Below, piece by piece: positions 1 through 34,364 of a DNA stretch of 64,000 nt. The notes beneath the pieces are model-generated. The model was not told the origin of the DNA and searched no databases. It saw only the letters and a list, made by a program, of their open reading frames with translations. Positions within the stretch are counted from its first letter, which is position 1, and each line of letters opens with the position of its first letter. Source of the DNA: an uncultured Pseudomonadales bacterium (GTDB lineage Bacteria; Patescibacteriota; Microgenomatia; UBA1400; PJMF01); contig CAYOIJ010000001.1 in the NCBI GenBank assembly GCA_964404025.1, positions 22,685 through 86,684 of the forward strand, read 5' to 3'. The position numbers and the translations under genes are program-made.

Positions 1-696
1 GGGGCAAATCAAAACCCTGATGTTAATCCTGAAATTAATTACTCACCAGCTAGAAAAAAACGTATTCAAGAATATTTAAAAAGTATTCCAGAAAACGATG
101 AGAAACTTGATGATTGGGATCATCATTATAAACAAAAAACTCAGGCTTTAATTGCCAATTATGATCAAGTTAAGGTTCGAGCTGAGAACATTTCCGTTAA
201 ACAAGGGGAAGAGACGAGTAAGCCACAGCTTAAAACAAGAATTCGTAAATTGAAAAACTTAAAAGAGGTTCAAGAAAAAAATGTTCAAGATAATTTGCAA
301 AATGAGATAGGGGTAAATGAGGAAATAATTAATTTAGAAAACAAACAAACAACCAACTACAGCTTAAGCGCAAATAATCCCCCCAACAAACAGCTAGAAA
401 ACAAAAGTGTTGATGAAAATAAATTAGAGCCAGAGCAAGCCAACCAATTAGTTGGAAGAGTGACTGATTCACAAGGGCAAAGTGTTAATAATGCTTTGCT
501 GGAAATATTTGCTAATGATCAAGATCAAGCCTTGCGCATCATTAAAACCAACGCTGCTGGTCAATTTTATATTAAAACAGCCCTTCCTAACGGAGAATAT
601 TTGATCAAAACTGAGGCCGAAGGCTTAGTGTTTTCTCCATTAAGTATTAGGTTGACTGGAAAAATAGTTCCAAGCATAAAAATTATTGCTGATTAA
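1..696 (+). CDS. C-terminal part of a protein whose 5' end lies outside the window. The C-terminus has a carboxypeptidase-regulatory-like / Cna-B-like beta-sandwich motif (GRVTDSQGQSV...NDQDQALRIIKTNAAGQFYI...LPNGEYLIKTEAEG)
   Basis: Frame 1 is open from nt 1 to the stop at 696. The ORF-track Met at 250 is internal. VTD..G.PV..A...TDANG.Y.I..LP.G.Y pattern by eye. Lies directly upstream of the VirB4-like pair. Confidence 0.4.
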   Translation, partial: GANQNPDVNPEINYSPARKKRIQEYLKSIPENDEKLDDWDHHYKQKTQALIANYDQVKVRAENISVKQGEETSKPQLKTRIRKLKNLKEVQEKNVQDNLQNEIGVNEEIINLENKQTTNYSLSANNPPNKQLENKSVDENKLEPEQANQLVGRVTDSQGQSVNNALLEIFANDQDQALRIIKTNAAGQFYIKTALPNGEYLIKTEAEGLVFSPLSIRLTGKIVPSIKIIAD

Positions 697-749: not shown

Positions 750-1844
750 ATGAGTGATAACACTATTAGCTCTACTACGCAAGAATTTCTTGATGTTTTT
801 GATATTACCAACGACATGGTAATCCTTAAAGATGGTGTGGTATCCATCATTATGCAAATAGGCACCATGAACTTTAGTTTATTAGCAGAACAAGAACAAG
901 ATGCCATTATGTATACCTATGGTGCCTTGCTTAATTCTCTCAACTTCCCCATTCAAATTAATATTCAATCCAACATCAAAGACGCAACTAGATACCTAAG
1001 ATTACTCGAAAACCAGGCTAGACAAGCTAAATCTAGAGAGAAGGCTAAATTAATTGAAGAATACCGAGATTTTGTAGCTAATTTAATTCGCGAACGCAAT
1101 GTTTTAGAAAAAAAATTCTTTGTAGTTATTCCCACCAATGCTGGAGAAATGGGTTTATACACCGCAGAAAGCGTACTACCTGGTAAAACTAAATTTAACA
1201 TTAATAATTTTGAAAAAACCATCCTAATCGAAAAAGCCTCTACAATACTAGATCCTCGTAGAGATCATTTAATAGCTCAATTTAATAGGATTGGTTTATT
1301 CGCTAGACAACTAGATACTCAAGAAATTATTCAAAATTTTTATATTAACTACAATCCAGAATCAACAGAAGGACAAGAAGTTACTAATAGTGAAAGCTAT
1401 ACAACTCCTATGGTTAGGGCCAGTCTAACAAGCAATCAAAAACTTAGCACAGTAGAACAAGATAATGTCCAAGCTCAGACGCAGACTCAAGCTCCGGCCC
1501 CAAAACAAACACCAGCACAAACACCAGTTTCAGCGCCCAAGCCAGCACCAATACCGACATCACCACCAACACCGGCATCGTCACCAGAGATAACCACTGA
1601 ACCAACTGAAAGCTTTGTACCAAGCGAGATACCAAAAACCGACACCAATCCAACAAACTTCAGTGAAGAAATTGCGCAACTTCAAACAACAAGCCCCGAA
1701 CCAAATCAACCCTCACTAATAAATAATGATGCTCAAGAAACAAACTTAAACGTCCAAAACAATCAATTTAATCAAAAAATGATGCCACCTAGCTCAATCA
1801 ATCAAGTATTAAATAAAAATGAGTCAGGGCCCGTGGAGCTTTAA
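750..1844 (+). CDS. VirB4 N-terminal-domain-like protein with no Walker motifs and a Pro/Thr/Gln-rich low-complexity tail. Translationally coupled (TAATG overlap) to the downstream VirB4 ATPase
   Basis: N-terminus QEFLDVFDITNDMVILKDGVVSIIMQIGTMNFSLLAEQEQDAIMYTYGALLNSLNFPIQINIQ resembles the N-terminal signature of VirB4/TcpF/TraE ATPases (KDG...inf.l.s.eEq..i...f...ln.l....qi). No TM segment. Its stop overlaps the start of the next gene. Confidence 0.4.
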   Translation: MSDNTISSTTQEFLDVFDITNDMVILKDGVVSIIMQIGTMNFSLLAEQEQDAIMYTYGALLNSLNFPIQINIQSNIKDATRYLRLLENQARQAKSREKAKLIEEYRDFVANLIRERNVLEKKFFVVIPTNAGEMGLYTAESVLPGKTKFNINNFEKTILIEKASTILDPRRDHLIAQFNRIGLFARQLDTQEIIQNFYINYNPESTEGQEVTNSESYTTPMVRASLTSNQKLSTVEQDNVQAQTQTQAPAPKQTPAQTPVSAPKPAPIPTSPPTPASSPEITTEPTESFVPSEIPKTDTNPTNFSEEIAQLQTTSPEPNQPSLINNDAQETNLNVQNNQFNQKMMPPSSINQVLNKNESGPVEL

Positions 1845-4039
1845 TGTCAATTTTAGATTTTAACCTACCATTTCTTAACAAGAAAAAACCCAGCATCGAC
1901 CCTGTAGAACAAAAACAAATTGATGCAGAACAATACACCCAAGAAAAATTGAGAGATTTTTCTCGAGGCCTTGTTACCATTCAAGACATTATTGCTCCAG
2001 AAGCAATTGAGGTGGACTTCACCTATCAAAAAATTAATTCTACCTATACTAGAACTCTTTTTGTAGCTGGCTATCCCAGGAGTGTTCCTGCTAACTGGCT
2101 GTCCCCTCTAATTAATTTTCCTACTCAAGCCAATATTTCAATGTTTATTTTTCCTTCAGACACTAGTGAAATTTTAGACAACTTGAAGAGAAAAATTACC
2201 GAAATGGAGGCTGAGATTACCTCCGATGTCAGGGCGGGTAAAATTAGCAATATTAATACTGAAATTAAACTAAATGATGCTCGAGTTATGCGTGAACAGC
2301 TTGCTGCCGGATCAGAAAGATTTTTTCAATTTAGCTTATATGTCACCATCAAGAGTGAAAGTAAAGAGCAGTTAGAAAAAACCACTAAAGCTATTCAATC
2401 TGCTCTAGGATCTTTATTAATTGTTTCCAAAAAGTCAGCCCTACAAATGGATGAGGGCTTTAAAACAACCATTCCCATGGGTGTAGATCGCCTACTTGTT
2501 ACCAGAAACATGGACACCACTTCTCTTGCCACTACCTTTCCATTTACCTCCTCAGAACTAACCATGGAAACTGGTATTGTTTATGGGATTAACGAGCACA
2601 ATGACTCTCTGGTTATATTTGATCGCTTTCAAATGGAAAACGCCAATATGGTTATTTTTGCTAAGTCTGGAGCTGGTAAATCTTATACGGTTAAACTAGA
2701 AATTTTGCGACAGCTTATGTTCGACACAGAAATTATTGTTCTTGATCCAGAGCATGAGTATGAAGAGCTTTGTAAAATGGTGGGCGGAGAATACATTAAT
2801 TTTACTTTTGGTTCAAAAGCTAAGATTAATCCTTTCGATTTGTCCAACCTATATGAAGAAGGAGAAAACGAGCTTGGACAAAAAATTCTTTCACTTCACG
2901 GCTTGCTAAAAGTAATGTTGGGCGAAATGACTCCCCAACAAGAAGCAATACTAGATCGCGCTATTGTTGCTAGTTACAAGGCTAAAGGCATAACTCCAGA
3001 TCCCAACACACAAACCAACACTCCCCCACTAATGGAGGATCTTTATAAAGCCTTAATTGGCATGGAGCAAGATGAAAGCGCCGACTTAGCTGCTCGTTTA
3101 GAAAAATTTATTACCGGTTCTTTTCGCGGTATTTTTGATAAAGCTTCAAACATAGATATTAAATCTCCCTTCACAGTATTTAGTGTTAAAGAAATGGAAG
3201 AAGAACTGCGACCAATAGCAATGTATGTGATTCTTGACTTTATTTGGACAAAAATTAAGAAAGATCTCAAAAGAAGAATTTTGGTTATTGATGAGGCCTG
3301 GTACTTTATGATGCATCAGGACAGTTCAGCTTTTGTTTATTCAATGGTTAAAAGAGCGCGAAAATATTATTTAGGAATTACCACTATTACTCAAGACGTA
3401 GAAGACTTTTTACGAAATGATTATGGGCGAGCTATTGTTTCCAACTCCTCCATCCAGTTTTTAATGAAACAATCCACATCTTCAGTTCCTCTTTTAGCTC
3501 AAACTTTTTATCTGTCTGAAGGTGAAAGACAGCTCTTGGTTACTTCAGATGTTGGTGAGGGAATCTTTTTTGCTGGACAAAACCACGTGGCACTACGGGT
3601 AATTGCTTCTGATAAAGAACATCAGGTAATTACTACTGATCCAGAGGAAATTTTGAGTCAAAGAAAACAAGCTAGTGCTGAAAGAGAATTACGCCGCCAA
3701 AGACTTGAACAAAGCTCATCTGTAGAAACGCCAGAAGAAAAAGTTGGATCCTTTGAGACACCAAGTAAAATTCCCTGGCAAGGAGAAGAAATTAATTTTA
3801 CAACAGACGTATTGGAAGACGCAACAAATAAAGCAGAAAAAAATCTAAAACAAAATCCAGTGTTACCTCAAATTAAAAATATTTTTGATGGCGAAGGTCA
3901 TGCACAAACAGAATCTCAAAATATAGAGACTAAAAACCAAAATGCAAATCCTGATAGTCCTACAAGCACGGAGAGCGAAGAATCAAACAATAAACAGCAC
4001 TTTGGCTATTCAATTGACGACTATCAAGCTCCAAAATAA
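1844..4039 (+). CDS. virB4: VirB4/TraE/TcpF-family (AAA_10) type IV secretion / conjugative transfer ATPase
   Basis: Walker A VIFAKSGAGKSYTVK, Walker B RRILVIDEAWYFM, GITTITQDVEDF motif. VirB4-type N-terminal region (IAPEAIEVDFTYQKINSTYTRTLFVAGYPRSV). 731 aa with an unusual roughly 130-aa low-complexity acidic/polar C-terminal tail. Confidence 0.8.
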   Translation: MSILDFNLPFLNKKKPSIDPVEQKQIDAEQYTQEKLRDFSRGLVTIQDIIAPEAIEVDFTYQKINSTYTRTLFVAGYPRSVPANWLSPLINFPTQANISMFIFPSDTSEILDNLKRKITEMEAEITSDVRAGKISNINTEIKLNDARVMREQLAAGSERFFQFSLYVTIKSESKEQLEKTTKAIQSALGSLLIVSKKSALQMDEGFKTTIPMGVDRLLVTRNMDTTSLATTFPFTSSELTMETGIVYGINEHNDSLVIFDRFQMENANMVIFAKSGAGKSYTVKLEILRQLMFDTEIIVLDPEHEYEELCKMVGGEYINFTFGSKAKINPFDLSNLYEEGENELGQKILSLHGLLKVMLGEMTPQQEAILDRAIVASYKAKGITPDPNTQTNTPPLMEDLYKALIGMEQDESADLAARLEKFITGSFRGIFDKASNIDIKSPFTVFSVKEMEEELRPIAMYVILDFIWTKIKKDLKRRILVIDEAWYFMMHQDSSAFVYSMVKRARKYYLGITTITQDVEDFLRNDYGRAIVSNSSIQFLMKQSTSSVPLLAQTFYLSEGERQLLVTSDVGEGIFFAGQNHVALRVIASDKEHQVITTDPEEILSQRKQASAERELRRQRLEQSSSVETPEEKVGSFETPSKIPWQGEEINFTTDVLEDATNKAEKNLKQNPVLPQIKNIFDGEGHAQTESQNIETKNQNANPDSPTSTESEESNNKQHFGYSIDDYQAPK

Positions 4040-9896: not shown

Positions 9897-9930
9897 TTGC
9901 TTGGGCTTTAATTTACAATGTTGTTTACAA

Positions 9931-12900
9931 ATGATTGGTCAAAAACAACATTTAACAAGTGAATTGGTTGAGGATAGACCTGTTGTTTTTTTATTAGTTG
10001 AAGAAAAAAATCCATTTACCGATAGTTTAATTAGTTTTTTTAATTATTGTTCGCTAGACGCAAGGCTATTACTCCTGGATTCTTTTGTAGATCCTGCTCA
10101 AGCTTTAAAGCAATATCAGGCTATTAAAAAGGTTGAGGTCTATAAGCTATTAGTTGTGGGAGGTTTTAAAAAGACCTATGTAAAAAATCCAGACTTTCTT
10201 TTGCAGGTGCTACGAGCTTTTGAACGAGCTTTTGCAGAAGATGGTCGACTAATTTCAATATTTTTTTTGTTAAACTACTCTAGTCCCATTTCACCCATGG
10301 ATTTTGAGTTGCTTAATTTTAAAACTTTCTGGTTTAGGCAAGAGAGTTTTTTAAATCAAGCGCTAAAGGCTTTTCCCTTAGCTCAATTTTGTTTAGTAGA
10401 AGATCTTTTAGATTTGGATTTTGACTTTAACTTAAAGTTTAATTTATTTTTTAGTCCTTTTAAAAAACAACTGCTTTTGGATAGCCAGAGTAATTGTTGT
10501 TGGCAGACACAAGACGGTTTTTTAAGAAACTTTAGGACTTTATTTTTTCAGAGTAAGCCTGGGGAAAAACACTTGCTGCGAGGTCAGAAAACCCATAGCA
10601 CAAAGTTTGTGTTGGATGCTAAAGATTTGTGTAGTAGATATTTCTTACAGCAATTTGACATCCTAGATTTATTTCTACAGTCGGGCAAAGAAAATTATTT
10701 TTTGGCAGATTTTATAAAAGTTTATAATTCTGATGATAAAGTGTTGGAAATTTTAGATGAAAAAATTCGTCAACTTCCCCTTTCTTTAAATAAAGAGCTA
10801 ACTTTAGATCAAAATAGCTTGCAAACGATTGAGACACAAAAAACAGCCAAAGAGCTGTTGTTAAAATCAATCCCAGCAAGCAGTGATGAAAAGCTGGAAA
10901 AAGACGATAAGAGCTTGTCTAAGCTTAATAAAAAAACAGCTGCTACTGTACAAAGCGAAAATCATTTGAAGCAAGAAACTCAAAAAACAGATTTATTAGC
11001 AGGACAAAACAATATAAAGACTGATAAATCAAGCAATATAGATAAAACATTGCAAGATATTTTCCGTAAAGAACAAAAAACAAGGCACAAGCAACGTTTT
11101 AAACAAAATTTAAAAGGAGCAAAGAAAATTGTTAAAAAGAGCAAGTATCGTCGCTTTTCTTTTTATTTTGGAATTCTTCTTTCTTTAATTGGAACTTTAG
11201 TTCTAATTTTATTTGTAAATTTTTATTTTACTCAAAAGCTTTTTGAAAAAAATTTATTGGCTATTATGGAGGAAGATTTGTCCAACACCAATATTACGCA
11301 GGTTTCTCCTCCAAATAAGAGAGATTATCAATTCTTTAAATGGCAATTGGATAATTATGGAGAGCTTATTGGTGAAGAAATTTTTTCTACAGCTAATAAT
11401 TATTGGAAAATTTTTGAACACTTACAGAACCAAGCTAGCTTAACTGAAGGCTTGGAAAATGAGACCTTCCAGCTTTATCAGGCGATTTTAAAAACTGATG
11501 GAGATCTAAATATAAATTGGTCTAGCTATTTAAGTAAAAGACAGGAAATGTATCAGTTCAAACAAGAATTAAGTGGTCTTTTAGATCAATTAAACCCAGA
11601 TATTTTGCCAAAATCCCAGGCTGAAATTTTAGCTCAATACAAGAGTCAAACCCTAAAAGAGTTGATGTCTCAACAACGTTCAACACTTTTTTTAGATTCT
11701 TTGAGCAAATTTTTATTAAGCCCTGCAAGGAGTAATGTTGTAATTTTAATTCAGGACAGCAGTGAATTGAGGTCAAGTGGTGGTTTTCTGGTTTCGCTAG
11801 TAAGCTTGAGTTTTGAAAAAAGCCATTTATTGGATTGGCGAGTGTATGACGTGACTGATCTTGACCAAAGAATTTATGGAGAAAGAGAAGCGCCCGAGGA
11901 ATTAAAAAGTTTATTGGTGAGTGATAAACTCTTATTAAGAGACGCTAATTGGCCAGCTAGTTTTGCTGATGCAAGCTCCAACATTACTTGGTTTATAGAG
12001 CAAAGTTTAAATTTAAGTCCCGACCTTATTTTAACTTTAAATACTAAAGAAATTCATGATTTTCTAGAACTACTCTCCCCCCTTGTAGTCAATGATTTAG
12101 AGCTAAATCAAAATAATTTTTTTGAAGAGTTGCTGCGTCAAGAAAAGCTAAGTTTTAGTTTGGTTGTAGAGAACTTATTTAAACGCTTAATGACAGCATC
12201 AAAAGAAGAAATTATTTATATTTTAAAACAAGTAAATTTAGCTTTAGACACAAGAGAGATCTTTTTATACAGCAACATTGATCAATTACTTAGTGTTTTA
12301 AAGAATAATTTGTGGTCTGGAGAAATCTTGGAAACCCCTTGTCCAAGTGAGTTTGCTAGCGCTGGTGATGAATGTTTTACAGATGGAATTTTTCAACTAG
12401 AAAACAACGTGGGTTTAAATAAAGTTAACCGTTTAGTCACACAAGAAATTGATCATAGTTTAGGGATTAGCGAAAAGTTTATTCGTCATAAACGGGTGAT
12501 CCGTTTAGAAAACTTCAGTCGTCAAAACTTCTGGCCAGAAGGAAATTATCAAACTTATTTAAAATTTTACTTGCCAAAAAGCGCTAATTTAGAAAAAATT
12601 ACACTGAATGGGAAAGCCGTTAACCCCAGCGCTTATCGATGGTTTGAAGAAAAAAACAAGCGAGTCTTAGCCCATCGCCTTGTTGTCCCAGTACTTTCCA
12701 CTGCTACTTTAGAAATTATATATCTAGTTCCCCATCAATTAACTCCTCCTTTTTCTTATGTTTTCCTTGATCAAAAACAAGCGGGTCTATTTGACAAACA
12801 GACTAACTATAAAGTGTTATTTGCTGAAAACTTCTTACCAACTCTGATTGCACCTCAGGCTAATTATCAAGACAAAGTAATTGAATTTAGTAATGACAAT

Positions 12901-12933
12901 CAGGATAACTTTTTATTTGCGGTTGCTTTTTAG
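9931..12933 (+). CDS. Large single-pass membrane protein. Roughly 430-aa cytoplasmic N-terminal domain, one TM helix (FSFYFGILLSLIGTLVLILFVNFYF), roughly 540-aa extracytoplasmic domain, possibly DUF4012-like. Function unknown
   Basis: Roughly 1000-aa ORF. The track starts at a TTG at 9901; the first in-frame ATG is at 9931. The extracellular segment contains DSSELRSSGGFLVSLVS, reminiscent of the E.R..GGF motif of DUF4012 proteins. This is recalled from memory, not verified. Confidence 0.5.
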   Translation: MIGQKQHLTSELVEDRPVVFLLVEEKNPFTDSLISFFNYCSLDARLLLLDSFVDPAQALKQYQAIKKVEVYKLLVVGGFKKTYVKNPDFLLQVLRAFERAFAEDGRLISIFFLLNYSSPISPMDFELLNFKTFWFRQESFLNQALKAFPLAQFCLVEDLLDLDFDFNLKFNLFFSPFKKQLLLDSQSNCCWQTQDGFLRNFRTLFFQSKPGEKHLLRGQKTHSTKFVLDAKDLCSRYFLQQFDILDLFLQSGKENYFLADFIKVYNSDDKVLEILDEKIRQLPLSLNKELTLDQNSLQTIETQKTAKELLLKSIPASSDEKLEKDDKSLSKLNKKTAATVQSENHLKQETQKTDLLAGQNNIKTDKSSNIDKTLQDIFRKEQKTRHKQRFKQNLKGAKKIVKKSKYRRFSFYFGILLSLIGTLVLILFVNFYFTQKLFEKNLLAIMEEDLSNTNITQVSPPNKRDYQFFKWQLDNYGELIGEEIFSTANNYWKIFEHLQNQASLTEGLENETFQLYQAILKTDGDLNINWSSYLSKRQEMYQFKQELSGLLDQLNPDILPKSQAEILAQYKSQTLKELMSQQRSTLFLDSLSKFLLSPARSNVVILIQDSSELRSSGGFLVSLVSLSFEKSHLLDWRVYDVTDLDQRIYGEREAPEELKSLLVSDKLLLRDANWPASFADASSNITWFIEQSLNLSPDLILTLNTKEIHDFLELLSPLVVNDLELNQNNFFEELLRQEKLSFSLVVENLFKRLMTASKEEIIYILKQVNLALDTREIFLYSNIDQLLSVLKNNLWSGEILETPCPSEFASAGDECFTDGIFQLENNVGLNKVNRLVTQEIDHSLGISEKFIRHKRVIRLENFSRQNFWPEGNYQTYLKFYLPKSANLEKITLNGKAVNPSAYRWFEEKNKRVLAHRLVVPVLSTATLEIIYLVPHQLTPPFSYVFLDQKQAGLFDKQTNYKVLFAENFLPTLIAPQANYQDKVIEFSNDNQDNFLFAVAF

Positions 12934-18121: not shown

Positions 18122-18553
18122 TTAGTTTTCAATCCAATTTTTTTCTGAGCCTGGAATGATAAATGATTTAATCATCTCAATGCCAGTGAAATTAGCGATC
18201 AGATTAATGATAATAAAAGCCGACAGGGCTAAAATTAGGCCAATAATAGCAAAGGTAATAGTATTCTTAGACTTTTCTACTTCTTGGCTTTTTCCAGCTG
18301 ATAACAATAGATTAAAAGCTGCGTAAATAATCATCACAAATCCTGCTATGCCAATTAATGTTAAAACAATGGAAAGAGTATTGGCCAGTAAACACCCAAT
18401 GCCTTGAACAGTGGCTACTCCTTCGATAGTGCAATTGGTGTTGATTTCATCCCATTTTTTAGTTTGTGCTTGGACAGGTTTAACAAGAGGAAAAAACGAA
18501 AGGGTTTGAATCATCATGGATTTGATTATAGCAATAAAAAACTCTCTTTCCAA
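18122..18553 (-). CDS. VirB2/TrbC-like pilin paralog 1 of 7
   Basis: Signal peptide ending VQAQT. Two TM helices flank the conserved loop LLSAGKSQEVEKSKNTITFAIIGLILA. C-terminal tail ...IIPGSEKNWIEN. Confidence 0.6.
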   Translation of the reverse strand: MEREFFIAIIKSMMIQTLSFFPLVKPVQAQTKKWDEINTNCTIEGVATVQGIGCLLANTLSIVLTLIGIAGFVMIIYAAFNLLLSAGKSQEVEKSKNTITFAIIGLILALSAFIIINLIANFTGIEMIKSFIIPGSEKNWIEN

Positions 18554-18590
18554 GCAAATGAAAAGAGAGTTTTTTAGTATTTAAATTTAA

Positions 18591-18992
18591 TTAGGGTTTA
18601 TTAATAGTGCCTACGTTTTGAAAAACTTCATTAAAGCTACCAAAGCCTAAGAAGTTTACAATTAAGTTAATTATGGCGTAGGAAGCTGCTACGACAATTA
18701 AACCAATGATGGCGGCCGTAATCTTGTTGCGAGCTTCTTCAGCTTTTCCCTTATCTCCTCCTGAAGTAATCCATTGAATACCTCCAAAAATTAGATAGGC
18801 AAAAACCAAGATAGCTGCAAGCAACATCACCACATTCAAAATAGAACTAAACATTTTGCCAAAATCAGTGGCGTAACCAGTACCTGGAGTGACTTCAATG
18901 TCATCAAAAGCTGCCATTACCAGCTTGGCTTGAAGAAGAATTCCACTTAAAGCACTGCCACTAGCCAGAGCAATTTTTTTAGTTAATTTCAT
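18591..18992 (-). CDS. VirB2/TrbC-like pilin paralog 2 of 7
   Basis: Signal peptide. TM hairpin with loop WITSGGDKGKAEEARNKITAAIIGLIVVAASYAI. RBS AAAAGGAGAC. An extended -10 lies upstream. Confidence 0.65.
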   Translation of the reverse strand: MKLTKKIALASGSALSGILLQAKLVMAAFDDIEVTPGTGYATDFGKMFSSILNVVMLLAAILVFAYLIFGGIQWITSGGDKGKAEEARNKITAAIIGLIVVAASYAIINLIVNFLGFGSFNEVFQNVGTINKP

Positions 18993-19028
18993 AAAAGTCT
19001 CCTTTTAAATTTTTTTATCTAACTTTTT

Positions 19029-19037
19029 ATTATATCA
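19029..19037 (-). promoter_or_regulatory. Extended -10 promoter (TGATATAAT on the minus strand) upstream of pilin paralog 2
   Basis: Read on the reverse complement of 18993-19063. About 37 nt from the start codon, with a strong RBS between. Confidence 0.4.
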
Positions 19038-19063
19038 AGTTTATTAGTCTTTAGCAAAAAAAT

Positions 19064-19405
19064 CTAGACGAATTTTATTACAGTGATACCAAGGAAACTG
19101 GCTACCAGACTAAAAATAGCCATAGTGGCTGCTAGAACTATTAAGCCAATAATAGCCGTAGTGATTTTGTTGCGGGCAAATTCTATTTTACTTTTATCTC
19201 CGGAAGAAGTTATCCATTCAATCGCTCCCCAAATAATTAAGCCTAAACAAGCAACAACCCCCAGAACCATAGCTACTCTTAAAATGTTGCTGAGCCAATT
19301 GCCGAATCCACCATCAGCTGTTTGAGACTCCTCAGCTCCATATAGACCCTGCTTAACAGCTTCCTCAGCTATGTCTAAAGTAACTTGTGCGATTTGTTTA
19401 CTCAT
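19064..19405 (-). CDS. VirB2/TrbC-like pilin paralog 3 of 7
   Basis: TM hairpin with loop WITSSGDKSKIEFARNKITTAIIGLIVLAATMAI. 113 aa. Confidence 0.65.
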   Translation of the reverse strand: MSKQIAQVTLDIAEEAVKQGLYGAEESQTADGGFGNWLSNILRVAMVLGVVACLGLIIWGAIEWITSSGDKSKIEFARNKITTAIIGLIVLAATMAIFSLVASFLGITVIKFV

Positions 19406-19430
19406 ATTTGATTTTTCAAAATTATTAATG

Positions 19431-19859
19431 TTAATTTACACCTGGAATAGTGAGTCTTAATAGGTCAAATTCACCACCAAACAGTAATTTACTCATAAAG
19501 CCTAGTAAAACAAAGGAGCTAACCAATAAAACCAAGCCAATAATGGCGTGAGTCATTTGATTGCGTGCTTTTTCAAGTTTGCTTGTATCTCCTCCTGAAG
19601 TAATCCAAGTGAAGGCTCCCATGAGAAAATAGGCGATAACAGCTAGTGAGCCAATAGTTATAGAAGCCCTCCACAGATAAACTGTATATTCAATAAATTT
19701 GCCACCACTGGTTACAGTGGCATCGTGTTGTCCAAGGTCACCAGTCACTGGGTTGTTAATTTGCGCCTGAACTATTTGTGGCTGAACGATGAAGCTTAAT
19801 AAAAGCAAATAAAAAAAACTTAGTTTTTGATACAGGTTTGAATATAAGATTTTTTTCAT
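19431..19859 (-). CDS. VirB2/TrbC-like pilin paralog 4 of 7
   Basis: Signal peptide ending VQAQI. Loop WITSGGDTSKLEKARNQMTHAIIGLVLL. C-terminal ...LTIPGVN. Confidence 0.65.
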   Translation of the reverse strand: MKKILYSNLYQKLSFFYLLLLSFIVQPQIVQAQINNPVTGDLGQHDATVTSGGKFIEYTVYLWRASITIGSLAVIAYFLMGAFTWITSGGDTSKLEKARNQMTHAIIGLVLLVSSFVLLGFMSKLLFGGEFDLLRLTIPGVN

Positions 19860-19865
19860 ATAAAT

Positions 19866-20255
19866 TTAACTGTTTCCAGGAATAATTTCTTGTATCATCT
19901 TGGCTGGCTCTAGTAAGTCTAAGCCTATAATGCCGCCAATAAGACCGATAATTGCATAAGTGGCAACAATTAAAATCAGGCCTAAAGTGCTCCAAACCAG
20001 ACGATCTTTGGCCTTTTCAACTTTGCCTGTGTCGCCGGCAGCGGTAATCCAGCTAAATGCAGCAATAAAAGCATAGACAATAAAAAATAAGGTACCCAAA
20101 ACAGTAATTACCCCGATAATGTCACTGATCCATAACTCTAGGGTTGACAATACAACAGTAGCGTCTTCTAAATTGGCTGGTTGACGAGCTTCACTAACTG
20201 GTTTTATTGAGCCAATATTGACATCTTTAGCAAGAAGAGTATTAATTTTTGACAT
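19866..20255 (-). CDS. VirB2/TrbC-like pilin paralog 5 of 7
   Basis: Loop WITAAGDTGKVEKAKDRLVWSTLGLILIVATYAI. C-terminal ...IIPGNS. Confidence 0.65.
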   Translation of the reverse strand: MSKINTLLAKDVNIGSIKPVSEARQPANLEDATVVLSTLELWISDIIGVITVLGTLFFIVYAFIAAFSWITAAGDTGKVEKAKDRLVWSTLGLILIVATYAIIGLIGGIIGLDLLEPAKMIQEIIPGNS

Positions 20256-20263
20256 AATTTTAT

Positions 20264-20704
20264 TTATATTATTGGACTTGGTATTTTGGGGTTAATTATA
20301 AAGCTAGCATCACCAAATAGAATTAAACCGATAACAGCGGCGATGGTGTAAGAGGCAACAATGATAGCGAGCCCAACAACGCTTAGAGTAAGTTTGGAGC
20401 CAATTTTTTCTATAGCTCCTGAGTTGTCGGCACTAGTGATATAGGTAAAACCAGCTAAGATAAAATTAAGCATGGTCCACAATCCAGCCACAATTGAGAT
20501 CAGTTTAATCAAGTTAGAAAAGAAAAGAATAAGGCCAATACCACTATCTGATTGTTGATTTAACTCAGCCACGCCAGGAGGAGCATCAATATTACCAAAA
20601 ACAGAAGCGGGTTTAGCGCTTGGGGTTTGGGCAAAGGTTTGATTATTTAAAAAGATGCTTGATGCAATAAGTAGAAAAAGTAGTCCTAAAATTATTTTTT
20701 TCAT
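20264..20704 (-). CDS. VirB2/TrbC-like pilin paralog 6 of 7
   Basis: Signal peptide ending FAQT. Loop YITSADNSGAIEKIGSKLTLSVVGLAIIVASYTI. Confidence 0.6.
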   Translation of the reverse strand: MKKIILGLLFLLIASSIFLNNQTFAQTPSAKPASVFGNIDAPPGVAELNQQSDSGIGLILFFSNLIKLISIVAGLWTMLNFILAGFTYITSADNSGAIEKIGSKLTLSVVGLAIIVASYTIAAVIGLILFGDASFIINPKIPSPII

Positions 20705-20733
20705 TTCAAATTTCCATTATACCTGGCTCTTTT

Positions 20734-21150
20734 TCAAAAGCCAATATCTGCTCCAGTAAATGTTTTGATTATTTGCATAATCCAATAAGCAGCGAAAATA
20801 ACTAAGAATCCGATGAGAGCCGAAGTCATGGTAGTTTTAGCTTTTTCTTTACTTTCTGACTCACTTCCGGCAATCATAGCTAAACCTGAAATAACGATCA
20901 TGGCAAAAAGAATTAAGCCAACTAAGACAAAGACAACTCTTACCAAAAGATTAACCATGTCTGCTGGCGTGCTAAAAACATCACTAACTTTTTGGCCGTC
21001 ACTAAGAACCAAGTATTCTGCAAGATCTATCTCAACAGCGTTAGTATCAGCTTGAGCTGTAAATTGAATGGATGAAAAATTAAAAATTAAAAAATTTGAA
21101 GCTAGAACTGACATTATTAATATAATTGTCATCAAGATTTTTTTCATCAA
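20734..21150 (-). CDS. VirB2/TrbC-like pilin paralog 7 of 7
   Basis: Signal peptide ending TAQA. Loop MIAGSESESKEKAKTTMTSALIGFLVIFAAYWI. Confidence 0.6.
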   Translation of the reverse strand: MMKKILMTIILIMSVLASNFLIFNFSSIQFTAQADTNAVEIDLAEYLVLSDGQKVSDVFSTPADMVNLLVRVVFVLVGLILFAMIVISGLAMIAGSESESKEKAKTTMTSALIGFLVIFAAYWIMQIIKTFTGADIGF

Positions 21151-21197
21151 AGCTAATTATAAAATAAAATTTTCTGATATGATAGGGTAGTTTGATC

Positions 21198-21755
21198 ATG
21201 AAGCGTTTTATCGGATTTACAGACGAGCGAGTTTTAGTTGAAGCCATCAAAAATGGTCATGAATTGGCCATCGAATATTGGTTTAAGCATTACTATAAAA
21301 AATTATTAACTCTAGCTTTACAAAAATTACCCAATTCAGCTGTAGCTGAAGAAATTGTGCAAGAAACCTTTGTTAATTGTTTGCGGGCAATCAACTTATT
21401 TAAGGGAAATAGTTCGTTGTTAACATACATGCAGAGTATTTTACGTCATGAAATTAATGATTTTTATCGTAAACGGTATGCAAAAAAATTTATCAAAACG
21501 ATTCCTCTCTCTGAGGTTTTTTTAGAGCATGAGTTTAAAGATGCTCATGAAACTGCTGTCATGGTTAAATTAGTTTTAAAAAAAATGGCTAGAAGATCTA
21601 GAGAGTTGCTAATGCAAAAATATGTAGATAAAAAAAGAGTAAAAGATTTGGCTCGAGAACTAGGTAGAACCGAAAAGGCTATCGAATCTGAATTGTTTAG
21701 GGCCAGAAAAGAATTTCGTTTGCTGTGGGCAAATATTAGTCAAACAATTGATTGA
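21198..21755 (+). CDS. ECF-type sigma-70 family sigma factor
   Basis: Region-2-like AVAEEIVQETFVNCLRAINLFKGNSSLLTYMQSILRHEINDFYRKR. Region-4 HTH RELLMQKYVDKKRVKDLARELGRTEKAIESELFRARKEFR. Divergent from the pilin array with only a roughly 45-bp spacer. The track start at 21192 is a TTG; the first ATG is at 21198. Confidence 0.75.
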   Translation: MKRFIGFTDERVLVEAIKNGHELAIEYWFKHYYKKLLTLALQKLPNSAVAEEIVQETFVNCLRAINLFKGNSSLLTYMQSILRHEINDFYRKRYAKKFIKTIPLSEVFLEHEFKDAHETAVMVKLVLKKMARRSRELLMQKYVDKKRVKDLARELGRTEKAIESELFRARKEFRLLWANISQTID

Positions 21756-21767
21756 TTAAAATATTGA

Positions 21768-21995
21768 TTGAATTCAAAAAAACACATGCAGAAAAATAAC
21801 AATCAAGAATTTTTAAGAAAACTAAAGACAGAAGCTAAATTAATCAGTTCACTCGAAAAAGAAAAATTTATTCCTGACCAATTGAGTGTTTTAGCTAATT
21901 TTGTTGCCACCCACGCTTGGCAAATATTATTAATTTTAGCTTTTATTACATCTTTACTCTGGGAATTATTACTTTATCAGGGAAATAATGGATAA
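21768..21995 (+). CDS. Small single-TM protein, candidate anti-sigma factor
   Basis: 75 aa. Charged N-terminus then one TM (WQILLILAFITSLLWELLLY). Immediately downstream of the ECF sigma. Assignment is by position only. Confidence 0.3.
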   Translation: MNSKKHMQKNNNQEFLRKLKTEAKLISSLEKEKFIPDQLSVLANFVATHAWQILLILAFITSLLWELLLYQGNNG

Positions 21996-22296
21996 GACGG
22001 GGATTGTTACATCAATGATTTATTCGCTGGGTCAAATTACTTTAGGTTTGTTTTTACACCCTTATCAGAGTATGCAAAACCTAGTCCGTGATCAGGTTTT
22101 TATACCACTAATGCTGTTGCCTACGCTTTTGGCAGGTCTGTTTTATGTTCTGTTTGCTTGGTGGTTGTTAGCCCTGTTTTATGATGGGTCAATAGTATTT
22201 AGATTGGTTTATCGTTCTTTTTTCTTTTTCTTTTTGTTTTGGCAAATTTTATTAGTTTATTTATTTTGGCGTTTTAAACGTGCTTTTAGTAATTAA
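21988..22296 (+). CDS. Hypothetical small polytopic membrane protein
   Basis: 102 aa, 3 hydrophobic segments. Overlaps the previous ORF by 8 nt. Confidence 0.3.
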   Translation: MDKTGIVTSMIYSLGQITLGLFLHPYQSMQNLVRDQVFIPLMLLPTLLAGLFYVLFAWWLLALFYDGSIVFRLVYRSFFFFFLFWQILLVYLFWRFKRAFSN

Positions 22297-24955: not shown

Positions 24956-26068
24956 ATGACTTTAATGTACGAGCCCCAATTTCAAATCAGCAACAACTTA
25001 TTGAGCTATATTTCTGCGATCGAATCAGCTAAAGCAGTAATTGATAATTCACCACTTGTGCCTGCTTGGGAAGCTAAATTTCGTGATGAAGCATTAGCTC
25101 GCAGTGTTCATTATGGCACCAGAATTGAGGGTAATGATTTAAGTGCTGCTCAAGCTGGGCAGGTTTTATCTTTAGAAAAAATTGATACTGTGCAATCAGT
25201 GCTTGATCAGACTGGCATAATTGCTCGTGAAAGAGATATTCAAGAAGTAATTAATTATCGCAATGTCTTGGCTTGGATAGACCAGCAGCCATTGTTAAAA
25301 AAAAGCCAAGATCAAGAAGATTCTTTACTCAATCTTGCAACCCTAAACCTATTGCACCGCTTAACAATGAACAATTTACTAGAAGAAGGTAGAATTGCTG
25401 TTTTGCGTGATAAGCAAGTTATTGTCAGAGGTGCAAGAGATGGACAGGTAGTTTTTCGTCCCCCAGTAGCTGCTGAAGTTCCATTTTTATTAGACGATCT
25501 TTTCACTTGGTTAAAGGGGGAAGAGAGTCAAAACTTACACCCAATTTTGCGAGCAGCAATTGTTCACTATCAACTAGTCTATATCCATCCCTATGTAGAG
25601 GGGAATGGTCGCACTGCTCGAGCTTTTGCTACTCTTGCTCTTTATGAGTCTGGCTATGATTTCAAGCGTTTTTTTTCAATTGAAGAGTATTTTGACAGCA
25701 ATGTTGACGCCTACTATCAAGCACTTTTATCTGTTCAGCAAAATGCTAAACACGATTTAACTTATTGGTTGGAGTATTTTGCCTATGGTTTGGCGCTGGA
25801 AATTGATAAGGTTAAACTAAAAGTAGCCAAGCTTTCACAAGATTTGAAGCTCAAGCGCGAGCTTGGACAGCAAGTAGCCCTATCTGAGCGACAAATTGTT
25901 TTATTAGAACTGCTACAAAATCAAGGGACTATGACCTCTGACGATGCCCAAAAAGTCTTACCCAATGTTTCGGTTGATACTATTCTGCGAGATCTTAAGG
26001 ACTTGATTGCCAAGGGTGTGGTTAAGAAACATGGGGTAACCAAGGGGGTTAGCTATAGTCTTAATTAA
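24956..26068 (+). CDS. Fic/DOC family protein with a C-terminal winged-helix domain
   Basis: Canonical Fic motif HPYVEGNGRTARAFATLALY (HPFx[DE]GNGR). C-terminal wHTH-like DLKDLIAKGVVKKHGVTKGVSYSL. Confidence 0.85.
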   Translation: MTLMYEPQFQISNNLLSYISAIESAKAVIDNSPLVPAWEAKFRDEALARSVHYGTRIEGNDLSAAQAGQVLSLEKIDTVQSVLDQTGIIARERDIQEVINYRNVLAWIDQQPLLKKSQDQEDSLLNLATLNLLHRLTMNNLLEEGRIAVLRDKQVIVRGARDGQVVFRPPVAAEVPFLLDDLFTWLKGEESQNLHPILRAAIVHYQLVYIHPYVEGNGRTARAFATLALYESGYDFKRFFSIEEYFDSNVDAYYQALLSVQQNAKHDLTYWLEYFAYGLALEIDKVKLKVAKLSQDLKLKRELGQQVALSERQIVLLELLQNQGTMTSDDAQKVLPNVSVDTILRDLKDLIAKGVVKKHGVTKGVSYSLN

Positions 26069-26132: not shown

Positions 26133-27959
26133 ATGCTTTTTAATCGATTAACCCAATATTTGCTCAATTTAGAAAAACTTAGTTCTCGTCTGGAAATGAC
26201 AGAATTATTAGCTGAAGTTTTTAAAGAGCTTGGTGAAGAAGAAATCGCGCCAGCTAGTTATTTATTGCAAGGAGGTTTGGTCCCTAGCTATCAATCTCTA
26301 GAGTTTCAATTATCCAATAAAATGTTGGTGCGCTCTCTAGCCAATTTTTATCTTCGTTATGAAAATTCTCTAAAAGATAAAGGTCGAGAGCTATTTTCAG
26401 AGCAAAATTTGTTTGGCGCTGACAATCAAGAGCTAATTGTTAAGAGGTTAAACAAACAATACAAAGAAATGGGTGACTTGGGAGATTTGTTTTATCAAAC
26501 ATTAGATAATTTTTCAGAATTACTAAATAATGATAAAAATTTAAATATTTTGGAAGTTCATCAAAAACTAGAAGATATTGCCAGGGTTGGAGGACTAGGT
26601 TCTCAGGATAAAAAAATCAATCTTTTGGCTGATTTATTAAGTCAGGTTAGTCCCTTATCAGGTAAGTTTATAGCGCGGATTATTTTGGGGAAAATGCGTT
26701 TGGGTTTTTCTACTATGACCATGTTGGACGCATTGTCATGGGTAAAAACAGGGGACAAAAGTGAGTCTCCGGCTTTGGAGGAAGCTTTTCAAAAAAAAGC
26801 TGATTTTGGTTTGTTGGCAAAACTATATCTTTTTGAAAAAGATCTTAATGCTAAAGAATTAGCCAGTCGTTACAAAATGGAGCTGGGCATTCCAGTAGTG
26901 CCAGCACTATGCCAAAGACTGAATAGTTCTCAAGAAATTATTGATAAAATGGGTGAACTTATAGCTGAACCAAAATATGATGGTTTACGTATCCAAATCC
27001 ATCTCAATAAAGCTGGCTTTGCTGATGGTAGCCGATATAAAGCTTATACTCGCAATTTAGAAGAAGTATCAGCGATGTTTCCAGAATTAGATCAATTATT
27101 GGAAGAATTTCAGGGTGAAACAGCTATTTTAGATAGTGAGGCTGTCGGTATTAATCCTGATTCTGGGAAGTTTGTTGCTTTTCAAGAAACCATTTCTCGT
27201 AAACGTAAATATGAAGTTGATGCTAAAGCCTTGGAGTTACCCATTCGCTTTTATGTTTTTGATTTATTGTATTTGAATGATGAGTCTCTAATTGATGAGC
27301 AACTACTTGATCGTAAAAAAAAGCTCAGCAAGGCAATTAATGACTCACAAGTGGTTAAAATAACTGATTACCAAATTATCAGTGATCCAATTGTTTTAAC
27401 TAATTATCATGAAAAACAATTAGACCTTGGTTTAGAGGGCGCAGTAATGAAAAAACCAGAATCTGCTTATGTGGCTGGTCGTAAAGGTTGGCGTTGGGTA
27501 AAAATCAAGGAAGCTGAGGGTAAACGAGGTAAATTAAATGATACTCTTGACTGCATTATGATGGGTTATTATCGAGGCAAAGGTAAGAGACAAAGCTTTG
27601 GTATTGGGGCGCTGTTAGTTGGTGTTTTAGATGAAGTCAGTGGCAAAATTAAAACTTTATCTAAGATTGGTACTGGTTTAACTGATGAGCAATTTCGCAA
27701 AGTTAAGAATTTGGCAGATCAGCACTTGACCAGCAATCATGAGCCTAACTCAAAATATGATTTTAAAAAAGAATTGGCAGCTGATGTGTGGATTGAGCCA
27801 AAATTAGTCTTGGAAATTGCAGCTGATGAAATTTCCAAATCTCCGAGCCATACTGCTACGGTGGCCCTGCGCTTCCCTCGTTTGATAAAAATTAGGGGCG
27901 ACAAGGATTGGCAACAAGCAACTACCCTTCAGGAATTAAAAAATATTAGTCAGGCTTAA
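26133..27959 (+). CDS. lig: ATP-dependent DNA ligase (Lig1-like, with N-terminal DNA-binding domain)
   Basis: Motif I AEPKYDGLRIQIH (KxDGxR). LDSEAVGI (motif III). EGAVMKK (motif IV). RKGWRWVKIK (motif V). 608 aa. Confidence 0.8.
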   Translation: MLFNRLTQYLLNLEKLSSRLEMTELLAEVFKELGEEEIAPASYLLQGGLVPSYQSLEFQLSNKMLVRSLANFYLRYENSLKDKGRELFSEQNLFGADNQELIVKRLNKQYKEMGDLGDLFYQTLDNFSELLNNDKNLNILEVHQKLEDIARVGGLGSQDKKINLLADLLSQVSPLSGKFIARIILGKMRLGFSTMTMLDALSWVKTGDKSESPALEEAFQKKADFGLLAKLYLFEKDLNAKELASRYKMELGIPVVPALCQRLNSSQEIIDKMGELIAEPKYDGLRIQIHLNKAGFADGSRYKAYTRNLEEVSAMFPELDQLLEEFQGETAILDSEAVGINPDSGKFVAFQETISRKRKYEVDAKALELPIRFYVFDLLYLNDESLIDEQLLDRKKKLSKAINDSQVVKITDYQIISDPIVLTNYHEKQLDLGLEGAVMKKPESAYVAGRKGWRWVKIKEAEGKRGKLNDTLDCIMMGYYRGKGKRQSFGIGALLVGVLDEVSGKIKTLSKIGTGLTDEQFRKVKNLADQHLTSNHEPNSKYDFKKELAADVWIEPKLVLEIAADEISKSPSHTATVALRFPRLIKIRGDKDWQQATTLQELKNISQA

Positions 27960-34286: not shown

Positions 34287-34290
34287 AGGG

Positions 34291-34364
34291 TGCGTGTGCT
34301 AGGACTTGAACCTAGAACCGCCAAGGTATAAGCTTGGTGCTCTAACCAATTGAGCTACACACGC
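34291..34364 (-). tRNA. tRNA with anticodon UAU. Ile-type, reading AUA, is inferred from the anticodon and D-arm only. 74 nt, with CC encoded after the discriminator A
   Basis: Hand-folded cloverleaf. Acceptor GCGTGTG/CACACGC is a perfect 7 bp. U8 A9. D-stem GCTC/GAGC with loop AATTGGTTA. Anticodon stem CCAAG/CTTGG with loop C-U-UAU-A-C. Variable loop CGGTT. T-arm CTAGG-TTCAAGT-CCTAG. Discriminator A. Confidence 0.8.

Follow-up and report, generated by a model that had tools for sequence, protein, structure and literature searches.

An order-conserved array of seven T4SS_pilin genes and an adjoining sigma factor module in a Microgenomates-group Patescibacterium

Pilin arrays of the Patescibacteria and comparable systems

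Tandem arrays of small pilin genes are a known element of type IV secretion systems (T4SSs) in the Patescibacteria, and such arrays are essential in S. epibionticum (PMC10633639). A survey with the Pfam profile PF18895 (T4SS_pilin) and other profiles recovered 441 arrays of 2-11 pilin genes from 383 Patescibacteria assemblies, especially in Microgenomatia and Saccharimonadia, with a mean pilin identity of 25% (Quinonero-Coronel et al. 2025; PMC12102498). The same survey reported TrsD beside VirB4 and T4SS genes beside dnaA, and suggested host-range versatility for the arrays by analogy with Bartonella and Anaplasma. The array findings are repeated in a 2025 review (PMC12857230), and a recent perspective describes the role of the Patescibacteria T4SS as completely unknown (PMC11665869). 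Here we describe an array of seven such genes, numbered W1 to W7 in order of transcription, at 18122-21150 on the minus strand of a 64-kb stretch of contig CAYOIJ010000001.1 (the window), together with an adjoining module of one extracytoplasmic function (ECF)-type sigma factor gene and two small membrane-protein genes. As a pilin array the locus belongs to an already published kind of system; what seems new is that the seven genes form an ancient fixed set, that one of them is apparently the main subunit, and that a sigma module is linked to the array.

The arrays of S. epibionticum ML1 (SEML1_0006-0019) and of the survey resemble the window array in their PF18895 membership, tandem two-helix genes and paralog identity of about 25%, and the Patescibacteria T4SSs share with the window a monoderm-type VirB4 and a TrsD beside dnaA (PMC10633639, PMC12102498, PMC12857230). 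The window array differs from the published ones in being separated from virB4 by about 13 housekeeping genes, and none of those three papers describes orthology by rank, one member equipped with a promoter and terminator of its own, or a neighboring sigma module. No mention of a sigma-array linkage was found in them or by full-text search, and the word 'sigma' is absent from the text of PMC12102498 and from two of its supplement files.

Clear sequence relatives of the window pilins, and the closest ones that bear a name, are found in the Mbov_0395 family (NF045849) of Mycoplasma integrative and conjugative elements and Bacillota elements. W6 scores 30.4 bits against NF045849 (E 2.3e-7) and does not reach the cut-off of 40 bits; on this score it is related to the equivalog but falls outside it. 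A homolog on a Pontibacillus megaplasmid, annotated 'pilin-like conjugal transfer protein', matches a hidden Markov model (HMM) built from the arrays at 63 bits (hhalign 97.9%), carries Y-I-T-S-Q-G-D-P-K-K-S-E-E-A-K, and is encoded in a Bacillota T4SS cluster together with a cell-wall hydrolase and a VirB4 of the CD1110 type; it is present once, on a mobile element, in contrast to the seven chromosomal copies of the window. The VirB2/TrbC pilins (PF04956) of the T-pilus, F-pilus and R388 are likewise small, with two hydrophobic helices, a short charged turn and a VirB4 machine, and most window copies, like them, have a predicted signal peptide; the window organism, by contrast, is monoderm and has no VirB5. 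PrgF(B2) of pCF10, proposed in a 2025 preprint to be the VirB2-like conjugative pilin of a Gram-positive T4SS, shares with the window pilins a two-helix hairpin, a charged turn and a monoderm CD1110-type VirB4 system, and shows that such systems can need a VirB2-like protein (10.64898/2025.12.18.695078). Unlike the window pilins, PrgF is a protein of 75 amino acids (aa) without a signal peptide and with a single functional copy. The tandem VirB2 paralogs of Bartonella, Anaplasma and Rickettsia also consist of several divergent genes in a row in a host-dependent bacterium, but they are interpreted as serving antigenic or host variation, whereas the window copies are conserved rank for rank under purifying selection.

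An ordered set of seven pilin genes

The array consists of seven consecutive minus-strand open reading frames (ORFs) of 113-146 aa separated by 6-71 bp, in agreement with a preliminary description of this DNA made from the letters alone, which gave operon-like gaps of 6-70 bp. W1 (20734-21150), the first gene transcribed and the one adjoining the sigma gene, encodes 138 aa from a TTG or 137 aa from ATG 21147 and is recognized by its PF18895 score of 34.0 bits, a signal-peptide-like N-terminus, two transmembrane (TM) helices and orthologs at the same rank. It is followed by W2 (20264-20704; 146 aa), also with same-rank orthologs, W3 (19866-20255; 129 aa; PF18895 31.1 bits), W4 (19431-19859; 142 aa; 30.0 bits), which has the hairpin, W5 (19064-19405; 113 aa; 34.1 bits), W6 (18591-18992; 133 aa), the candidate major subunit, and W7 (18122-18553; 29.4 bits). 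The maximal ORF of W7 has 143 aa, but the start is probably ATG 18517, which gives 131 aa; gene callers assign it 130-131 aa on other contigs. Six of the seven proteins exceed the PF18895 gathering cut-off of 26.6 bits (29.4-35.5 bits) and only W2 falls below it (16.3 bits). Scored with the HMM of related arrays, however, W2 reaches 117.9 bits, and by this measure it clearly belongs to the family.

Two strongly hydrophobic segments lie near the C-terminus of all seven proteins. An AF2 model of W6, built on 32 sequences, contains helices at residues 44-76 and 81-114 (pLDDT about 88-93) joined by a four-residue turn, S-G-G-D. Hydropathy of all seven and the model of W6 thus bear out the conserved TM hairpin of the preliminary description, while most of its 20-residue inter-helix loop proves to be the start of helix 2, the model breaking only at S-G-G-D. 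The motif it assigned to all seven genes, W-I-T-S-G-G-D..K.E.A-R-N..T.A-I-I-G-L, is present in W4-W6, and the remaining four proteins carry degenerate versions of it; one E and one G are the only residues invariant across the set. Paralog identities range from 19 to 45%, being 19-30% to W7 and highest between W6 and W5. A signal peptide had likewise been ascribed to each protein, and five do have a signal-peptide-like N-terminus, for which cleavage is predicted. W3 and W5 have no hydrophobic segment at the N-terminus, and nor do their orthologs: such a segment occurs at the W3 rank in none of 33 arrays and at the W5 rank in 6% of them. Presence or absence of a signal peptide is a conserved trait tied to array position.

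Relatives were collected by scanning one genome per species with an alignment of W4-W6 as seed, which yielded 80 loci; the arrays of the relatives range in size from 5 to 13 genes. In nearly all related arrays (30+ genomes), the best match of a given window paralog stands at the corresponding rank; the identity is 40-95%, much higher than between paralogs. Median ortholog identity over 25 genomes is 51-55% for six of the pilins and 66% for W6, and the housekeeping proteins LeuRS, UppS and RecF have medians of 62%, 63% and 61% over the same genomes. Ratios of nonsynonymous to synonymous substitution (dN/dS) against the two closest genomes are 0.02-0.16 for all seven genes, with W6 at 0.024-0.035 and LeuRS at 0.07-0.08. 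Comparison of N-terminal segments and hairpins, suggested earlier for the paralogs, was run on orthologs and gave 21-41% and 49-71% conservation, respectively. DNA repeats between paralogs are no better than 107 nt at 66-70% identity. Because orthology follows rank, rates resemble those of housekeeping genes, dN/dS is low and long repeats are lacking, the array is an ancient, order-conserved set of seven distinct proteins under purifying selection, and not the expanded, diversifying repertoire that had been proposed.

The seven genes differ in their transcription signals. A consensus scan of the region for sigma-70 promoters and terminators performed no better than on shuffled sequence (19 promoter-like sites against 17.4 expected), and real signals were told from chance ones only by comparison across genomes, here 31 seven-gene arrays. 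W6 is preceded by a promoter at 19029-19057 (minus strand; TTGCTA, 17 nt, TATAAT with the TG of an extended -10) and by a leader of about 30 nt that carries a strong Shine-Dalgarno (SD) sequence, AAGGAG, at 18999-19004 (minus strand). Directly 3' of its stop codon lies an intrinsic-terminator hairpin (18535-18576, minus strand) with an 18-bp stem, an A-tract and a U-tract (dG -23 kcal/mol, z -5.8; equally stable shuffles 0/200). Among the 31 arrays, an extended -10 stands upstream of W6 orthologs in 68% (0-40% at other ranks) and a strong SD in 74% (0-10% at other ranks); the two occur together in 52% at W6 and in 0% at every other rank. After W6, 77% of arrays have a terminator-like hairpin; at the other junctions the share is 0-6%.

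W7 has a leaderless-type promoter with the extended -10 TGCTATAAT at 18525-18533 (minus strand), 7 nt before ATG 18517, which is present in about 23% of arrays, including close relatives (L005, L006, L010, L011) as well as L022 and L057. For W1-W5 there is a leaderless-type promoter with the -10 box TATAAT at 21156-21161 (minus strand), 6-9 nt before the W1 start codons and kept at a fixed distance from the ATG in most of 17 aligned relatives. Both layouts suggest leaderless mRNAs. These signals seem to divide the array into three transcription units, namely W1-W5, W6 by itself, and W7. Since W6 is the most conserved of the pilins and alone combines a conserved strong promoter, a strong SD and its own terminator, it is likely the major, or bulk, subunit.

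The sigma factor module beside the array

The sigma gene (21192-21755, plus strand) encodes 187 aa from TTG 21192 and matches Sigma70_r2 at 45.8 bits, Sigma70_r4_2 at 31.6 bits and TIGR02937 at 68 bits (cut-off 42.9); no named ECF subfamily was reached at its cut-off. It begins 41 bp from the W1 ORF on the opposite strand, and the divergent ECF sigma gene first placed about 45 bp from the first pilin is thereby confirmed, with regions 2 and 4. The two small membrane proteins expected after it are also there. The first, sm1 (21768-21995, plus strand; 75 aa), is a candidate anti-sigma factor with a conserved helix at the N-terminus and a single TM helix at the C-terminus; it is present in 55 loci and has the conserved pattern FL..L..A..Q..L...P..L....WQ. 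The second, sm2 (21988-22296, plus strand; 102 aa), is a multi-pass membrane protein and candidate sigma co-regulator with the conserved motif GL..HPY..MQ.LV; it is present in 56 loci. The gene order is sigma-sm1-sm2, then recF. Neither small protein matches a Pfam or NCBIfam family or an anti-sigma domain. Values of dN/dS for the three genes are 0.03-0.12 (sigma 0.03-0.04; sm1 about 0.11).

ECF sigma operons with small membrane partners are familiar from B. subtilis, in sigM-yhdL-yhdK and sigY-yxlC-yxlD. There too the sigma factors consist of regions 2 and 4 only and are followed by small membrane-protein genes that partly overlap; in the window, by contrast, sm1 and sm2 match no anti-sigma family and no ECF-type promoter was recognized by eye.

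The sigma gene has its own extended -10, TGATATGAT, at 21175-21183 (plus strand), 8 nt before TTG 21192. An extended -10 occurs on the sigma strand in 27 of 56 loci, and the conserved element upstream of the sigma gene is of housekeeping-like form (TGnTATGAT or TGnTATTAT). In the window the -10 of the pilin strand (21161-21156) and the extended -10 of the sigma gene (21175-21183) stand back to back, so that each sits in the -35 position of the other, and across relatives the start codons of the sigma gene and W1 are about 25-55 bp apart. Twelve more distant loci (L027-L033, L035, L037, L039, L040, L042) have instead a symmetric element, TGnTATTATAnCA, that is an extended -10 on both strands; with start codons only about 3-30 bp apart, it looks like a fully overlapping bidirectional promoter of two near-leaderless genes.

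The junction between sigma gene and array is strongly conserved. The sigma-sm1-sm2 module divergently adjoins the first pilin gene in 55 of the 68 pilin-seeded loci with a visible upstream side, and the junction is kept in 55/55 genome loci with a sigma gene. Conversely, when a metagenome scan was seeded with the sigma protein, all 13 orthologs (at least 44% identity) proved to have divergent adjacent pilin genes; remote ECF sigma genes of other bacteria have none. The outer flanks vary: the gene beyond sm2 is recF in 32 loci, a nudix gene in 17, uppS in 3 and another gene in 3, and beyond the last pilin it is uppS in 26 and another gene in 24. Because the module is inherited together with the array and shares with it the 41-bp region of back-to-back promoters, its most likely role would be to couple pilus production to an envelope signal, the three proteins acting as a sigma/anti-sigma-like module. 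Control of the pilin genes by this sigma factor is a hypothesis suggested by the strong co-inheritance.

The principal competing explanation is that sigma-sm1-sm2 is a mere syntenic neighbor, kept by descent in a slowly rearranging origin-proximal region and regulating, for example, general envelope stress. We regard this as a serious contender, though we would stop short of calling it probable. Three observations speak for it and count against control of the array by the module. No ECF-type promoter was recognized by eye in the sigma-pilin intergenic and upstream regions of 56 loci, a dedicated motif search not having been made, and all recognizable promoters of the array (W1, W6, W7), like that of the sigma gene itself, look like housekeeping extended -10 promoters and not ECF-type ones. 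In 13 related loci the array lacks a sigma module, so that no adjacent sigma gene is needed; one of them, L081 (6135-7789), has recF 137 bp from the first pilin between otherwise unchanged flanks. Finally, a distant sigma relative (33% identity) with an sm2-like gene carrying the HPY motif adjoins rpmG, not pilin genes, in L101 (708-1599). Descent alone, however, is hard to square with a junction kept in every sigma-bearing genome locus and every sigma-seeded locus while both outer flanks change, and with the close start codons and overlapping or back-to-back -10 boxes, by which the two transcription units are physically tied.

The loci that depart from the usual arrangement have features of their own. 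In L081 the three genes of the module were apparently lost, or relocated, together. The L101 pair beside rpmG means that sigma and sm2 may have formed a pair before they became linked to the array, and the actual partner of sigma may be sm2. The related arrays in L045, L048, L051, L063, L067, L069, L073 and L082, which lack the sigma module, have 10-13 pilin genes, and in L045 and L063 the array opens with a 410-443-aa protein that matches the pilin HMM; it lies opposite a divergent gene for a secreted coiled-coil protein of 586 aa.

Secretion machinery, the proposed pilus and its meaning

The window contains part of a T4SS. At 1844-4039 (plus strand) lies a VirB4-type ATPase of the CD1110 (monoderm) family (NF045971 389.4 bits, cut-off 325) with a TraG P-loop domain. 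The preceding gene (750-1844, plus strand) encodes a TrsD/TraC-like protein with a weak match to NF041427 TrsD (30 bits) and a precomputed annotation as PF26593 TraC-like; it is related to the N-terminal part of VirB4 and matches the gene at the trsD position beside virB4 in L074 and L084 (E 1e-61 to 1e-69). What had been taken for a VirB4 pair at 750-4039 is thus one VirB4 and one TrsD/TraC-like protein. At the edge of the window, 1-696 (plus strand) is the 3' part of a gene whose frame is open from base 1; its C-terminal CarboxypepD_reg domain (Pfam) matches the end of a 403-424-aa membrane protein beside trsD in L074 and L084 (phmmer 1e-14, 5e-12). A JGI contig with the same genes likewise stops about 220 bp upstream of this domain, a sign that assemblies may break at this point. 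The order in the window is TrsD/TraC-like gene, virB4, dnaA, dnaN, rnpA, yidC, jag, rnhA, a DUF4012 protein gene, L25, leuS, NUDIX, uppS and the array, so that the VirB4/TrsD pair stands beside dnaA and 14 kb from the array, whereas in L074 and L084 the array directly adjoins the trsD-virB4 cluster. VirB6, VirB8 and VirD4, proposed earlier as partners to be sought elsewhere in the genome, did not appear in Pfam scans of the rest of the window, nor did VirB3 or type IV pilus genes; it holds housekeeping genes and a low-GC surface-glycan cluster, with no further T4SS parts.

We consider it probable that the locus is the pilin-gene array of a chromosomal, origin-proximal T4SS, working broadly as follows. 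The seven proteins would be inserted into the cytoplasmic membrane, five with a cleavable signal peptide and two with short tails lacking one, and would then be extracted and polymerized on the VirB4/TrsD machine, giving a pilus or conduit in contact with the host cell. W6 would supply the bulk subunit, while the other six, made at a lower level from two leaderless-type units (W1-W5 and W7), may be accessory or minor subunits. The preliminary reading, VirB2-like T4SS pilins of an episymbiont, is essentially right given PF18895 membership and the VirB4 and TrsD genes in the window, although it had already been published.

Several observations weigh against this reading. The T4SS cluster runs off the start of the window; no VirB6-like platform was found in the window; no pilus of these proteins has been seen in any organism; and the assignment of major and minor subunits draws on expression signals and conservation only. 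Similarity to known conjugative pilins is also lacking at the sequence level. None of the seven proteins matches PF04956 at E<=1, and hhalign of a 584-sequence pilin profile against six annotated plasmid VirB2/TrbC proteins gives a probability of 1.1%. For PrgF of pCF10 there is no detectable homology either (hhalign 1.7%, hmmsearch E 0.67), and a sequence search of the PDB with the 32-sequence pilin profile returned no VirB2, TraA, TrbC or other conjugative pilin. The sole match in that search, FliL at E 0.28, was set aside as chance. The proposed VirB2/TrbC family membership is therefore not borne out, while topology and T4SS context hold: the seven genes are PF18895 members, VirB2-like in topology and gene company but not demonstrably VirB2 homologs.

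It could accordingly be asked whether these proteins are filament subunits at all, or membrane parts of a T4SS channel or unrelated small membrane proteins of a holin-like or immunity kind. The missing sequence similarity to proven pilus formers would fit such a view, as would the fact that no filament of the PF18895 family has been imaged, but we judge it unlikely. The genes match a curated T4SS pilin family that accompanies VirB4 clusters in Patescibacteria and Bacillota, and one member that looks very highly expressed among lower ones fits a polymer with accessory subunits. Foldseek of the W6 model against the PDB returned nothing at E<=0.001, and its top structural match, below significance at that threshold, is a conjugation pilin of which 75 of 84 residues are covered. 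Matches to holin families in Pfam (E 0.44-0.63) lie far under threshold and are noise, as are those to transporter and other non-pilin families, all far under their own cut-offs. Least probable of all is that the seven paralogs form a repertoire diversifying for antigenic or host-range variation like the VirB2 arrays of Bartonella and Anaplasma, an idea put forward for Patescibacteria in PMC12102498: the low paralog identity, the weaker conservation of the presumably exposed N-terminal segments and the spread of array sizes would suit it, but it is contradicted by rank-for-rank orthology down to about 40% identity, housekeeping-like evolutionary rates, low dN/dS for every paralog, the lack of recombination-prone repeats, and position-specific traits such as the missing signal peptides of W3 and W5. 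The published suggestion of adaptation to varied hosts is not supported by the data on the window array.

The organism is a Patescibacterium of the Microgenomates group; related loci come from metagenome-assembled genomes (MAGs) named Pacebacteria, Woesebacteria, Microgenomates or Patescibacteria. Loci of this Patescibacterial type also occur in MAGs titled 'uncultured Pseudomonadales bacterium' (L005, L006, L010, L014, L017-L019 and many others) and in the complete genome CP011212.1, titled 'candidate division TM6'; the Pseudomonadales and TM6 titles look wrong. Elsewhere in the window, the surface-glycan cluster (37757-58891; GC 24-32%) includes a sugar transferase, an ABC-2 exporter pair, several glycosyltransferases, two Wzy_C (O-antigen ligase-like) proteins, PMT_2, radical SAM and RmlD. 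A gene for a 1010-aa protein whose only match is to DUF4012 (9901-12933, plus strand) is retained in most related loci past leuS, at the far side of the array. A 608-aa ATP-dependent DNA ligase (26133-27959, plus strand) has a three-domain archaeal/eukaryotic layout and is adjoined by a gene for a protein with Fic and DeoR-HTH domains (24956-26068, plus strand). A tRNA-Ile with anticodon TAT (34289-34364, minus strand) is the sole tRNA of the 64 kb; such a tRNA is in bacteria a less common means of reading AUA than the lysidine-modified CAT tRNA.

A bolder proposal is that the Microgenomates T4SS filament is a heteropolymer of one major and six fixed minor VirB2-like pilins, switched by a dedicated, membrane-signalling sigma/anti-sigma module through a shared bidirectional promoter. 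We put this forward tentatively and hold it to be doubtful as it stands. If true, such a heteropolymer would be unprecedented among type IV secretion systems, whose minor pilin, VirB5, is unrelated, and for the candidate phyla radiation the sigma switch would be the first regulator identified for an organelle of host interaction. The additions made here leave the kind of system unchanged. A pilin set that is fixed and ancient rather than variable adds to the published picture, and W6, with all the marks of a bulk subunit, points to the protein to tag, to purify or to model on a VirB6 platform. A sigma factor and two membrane partners co-inherited with the array across the clade provide a first candidate for how such minimal cells may regulate a host-contact organelle. 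The locus matters because the T4SS is essential in the one Patescibacterium that has been tested genetically.

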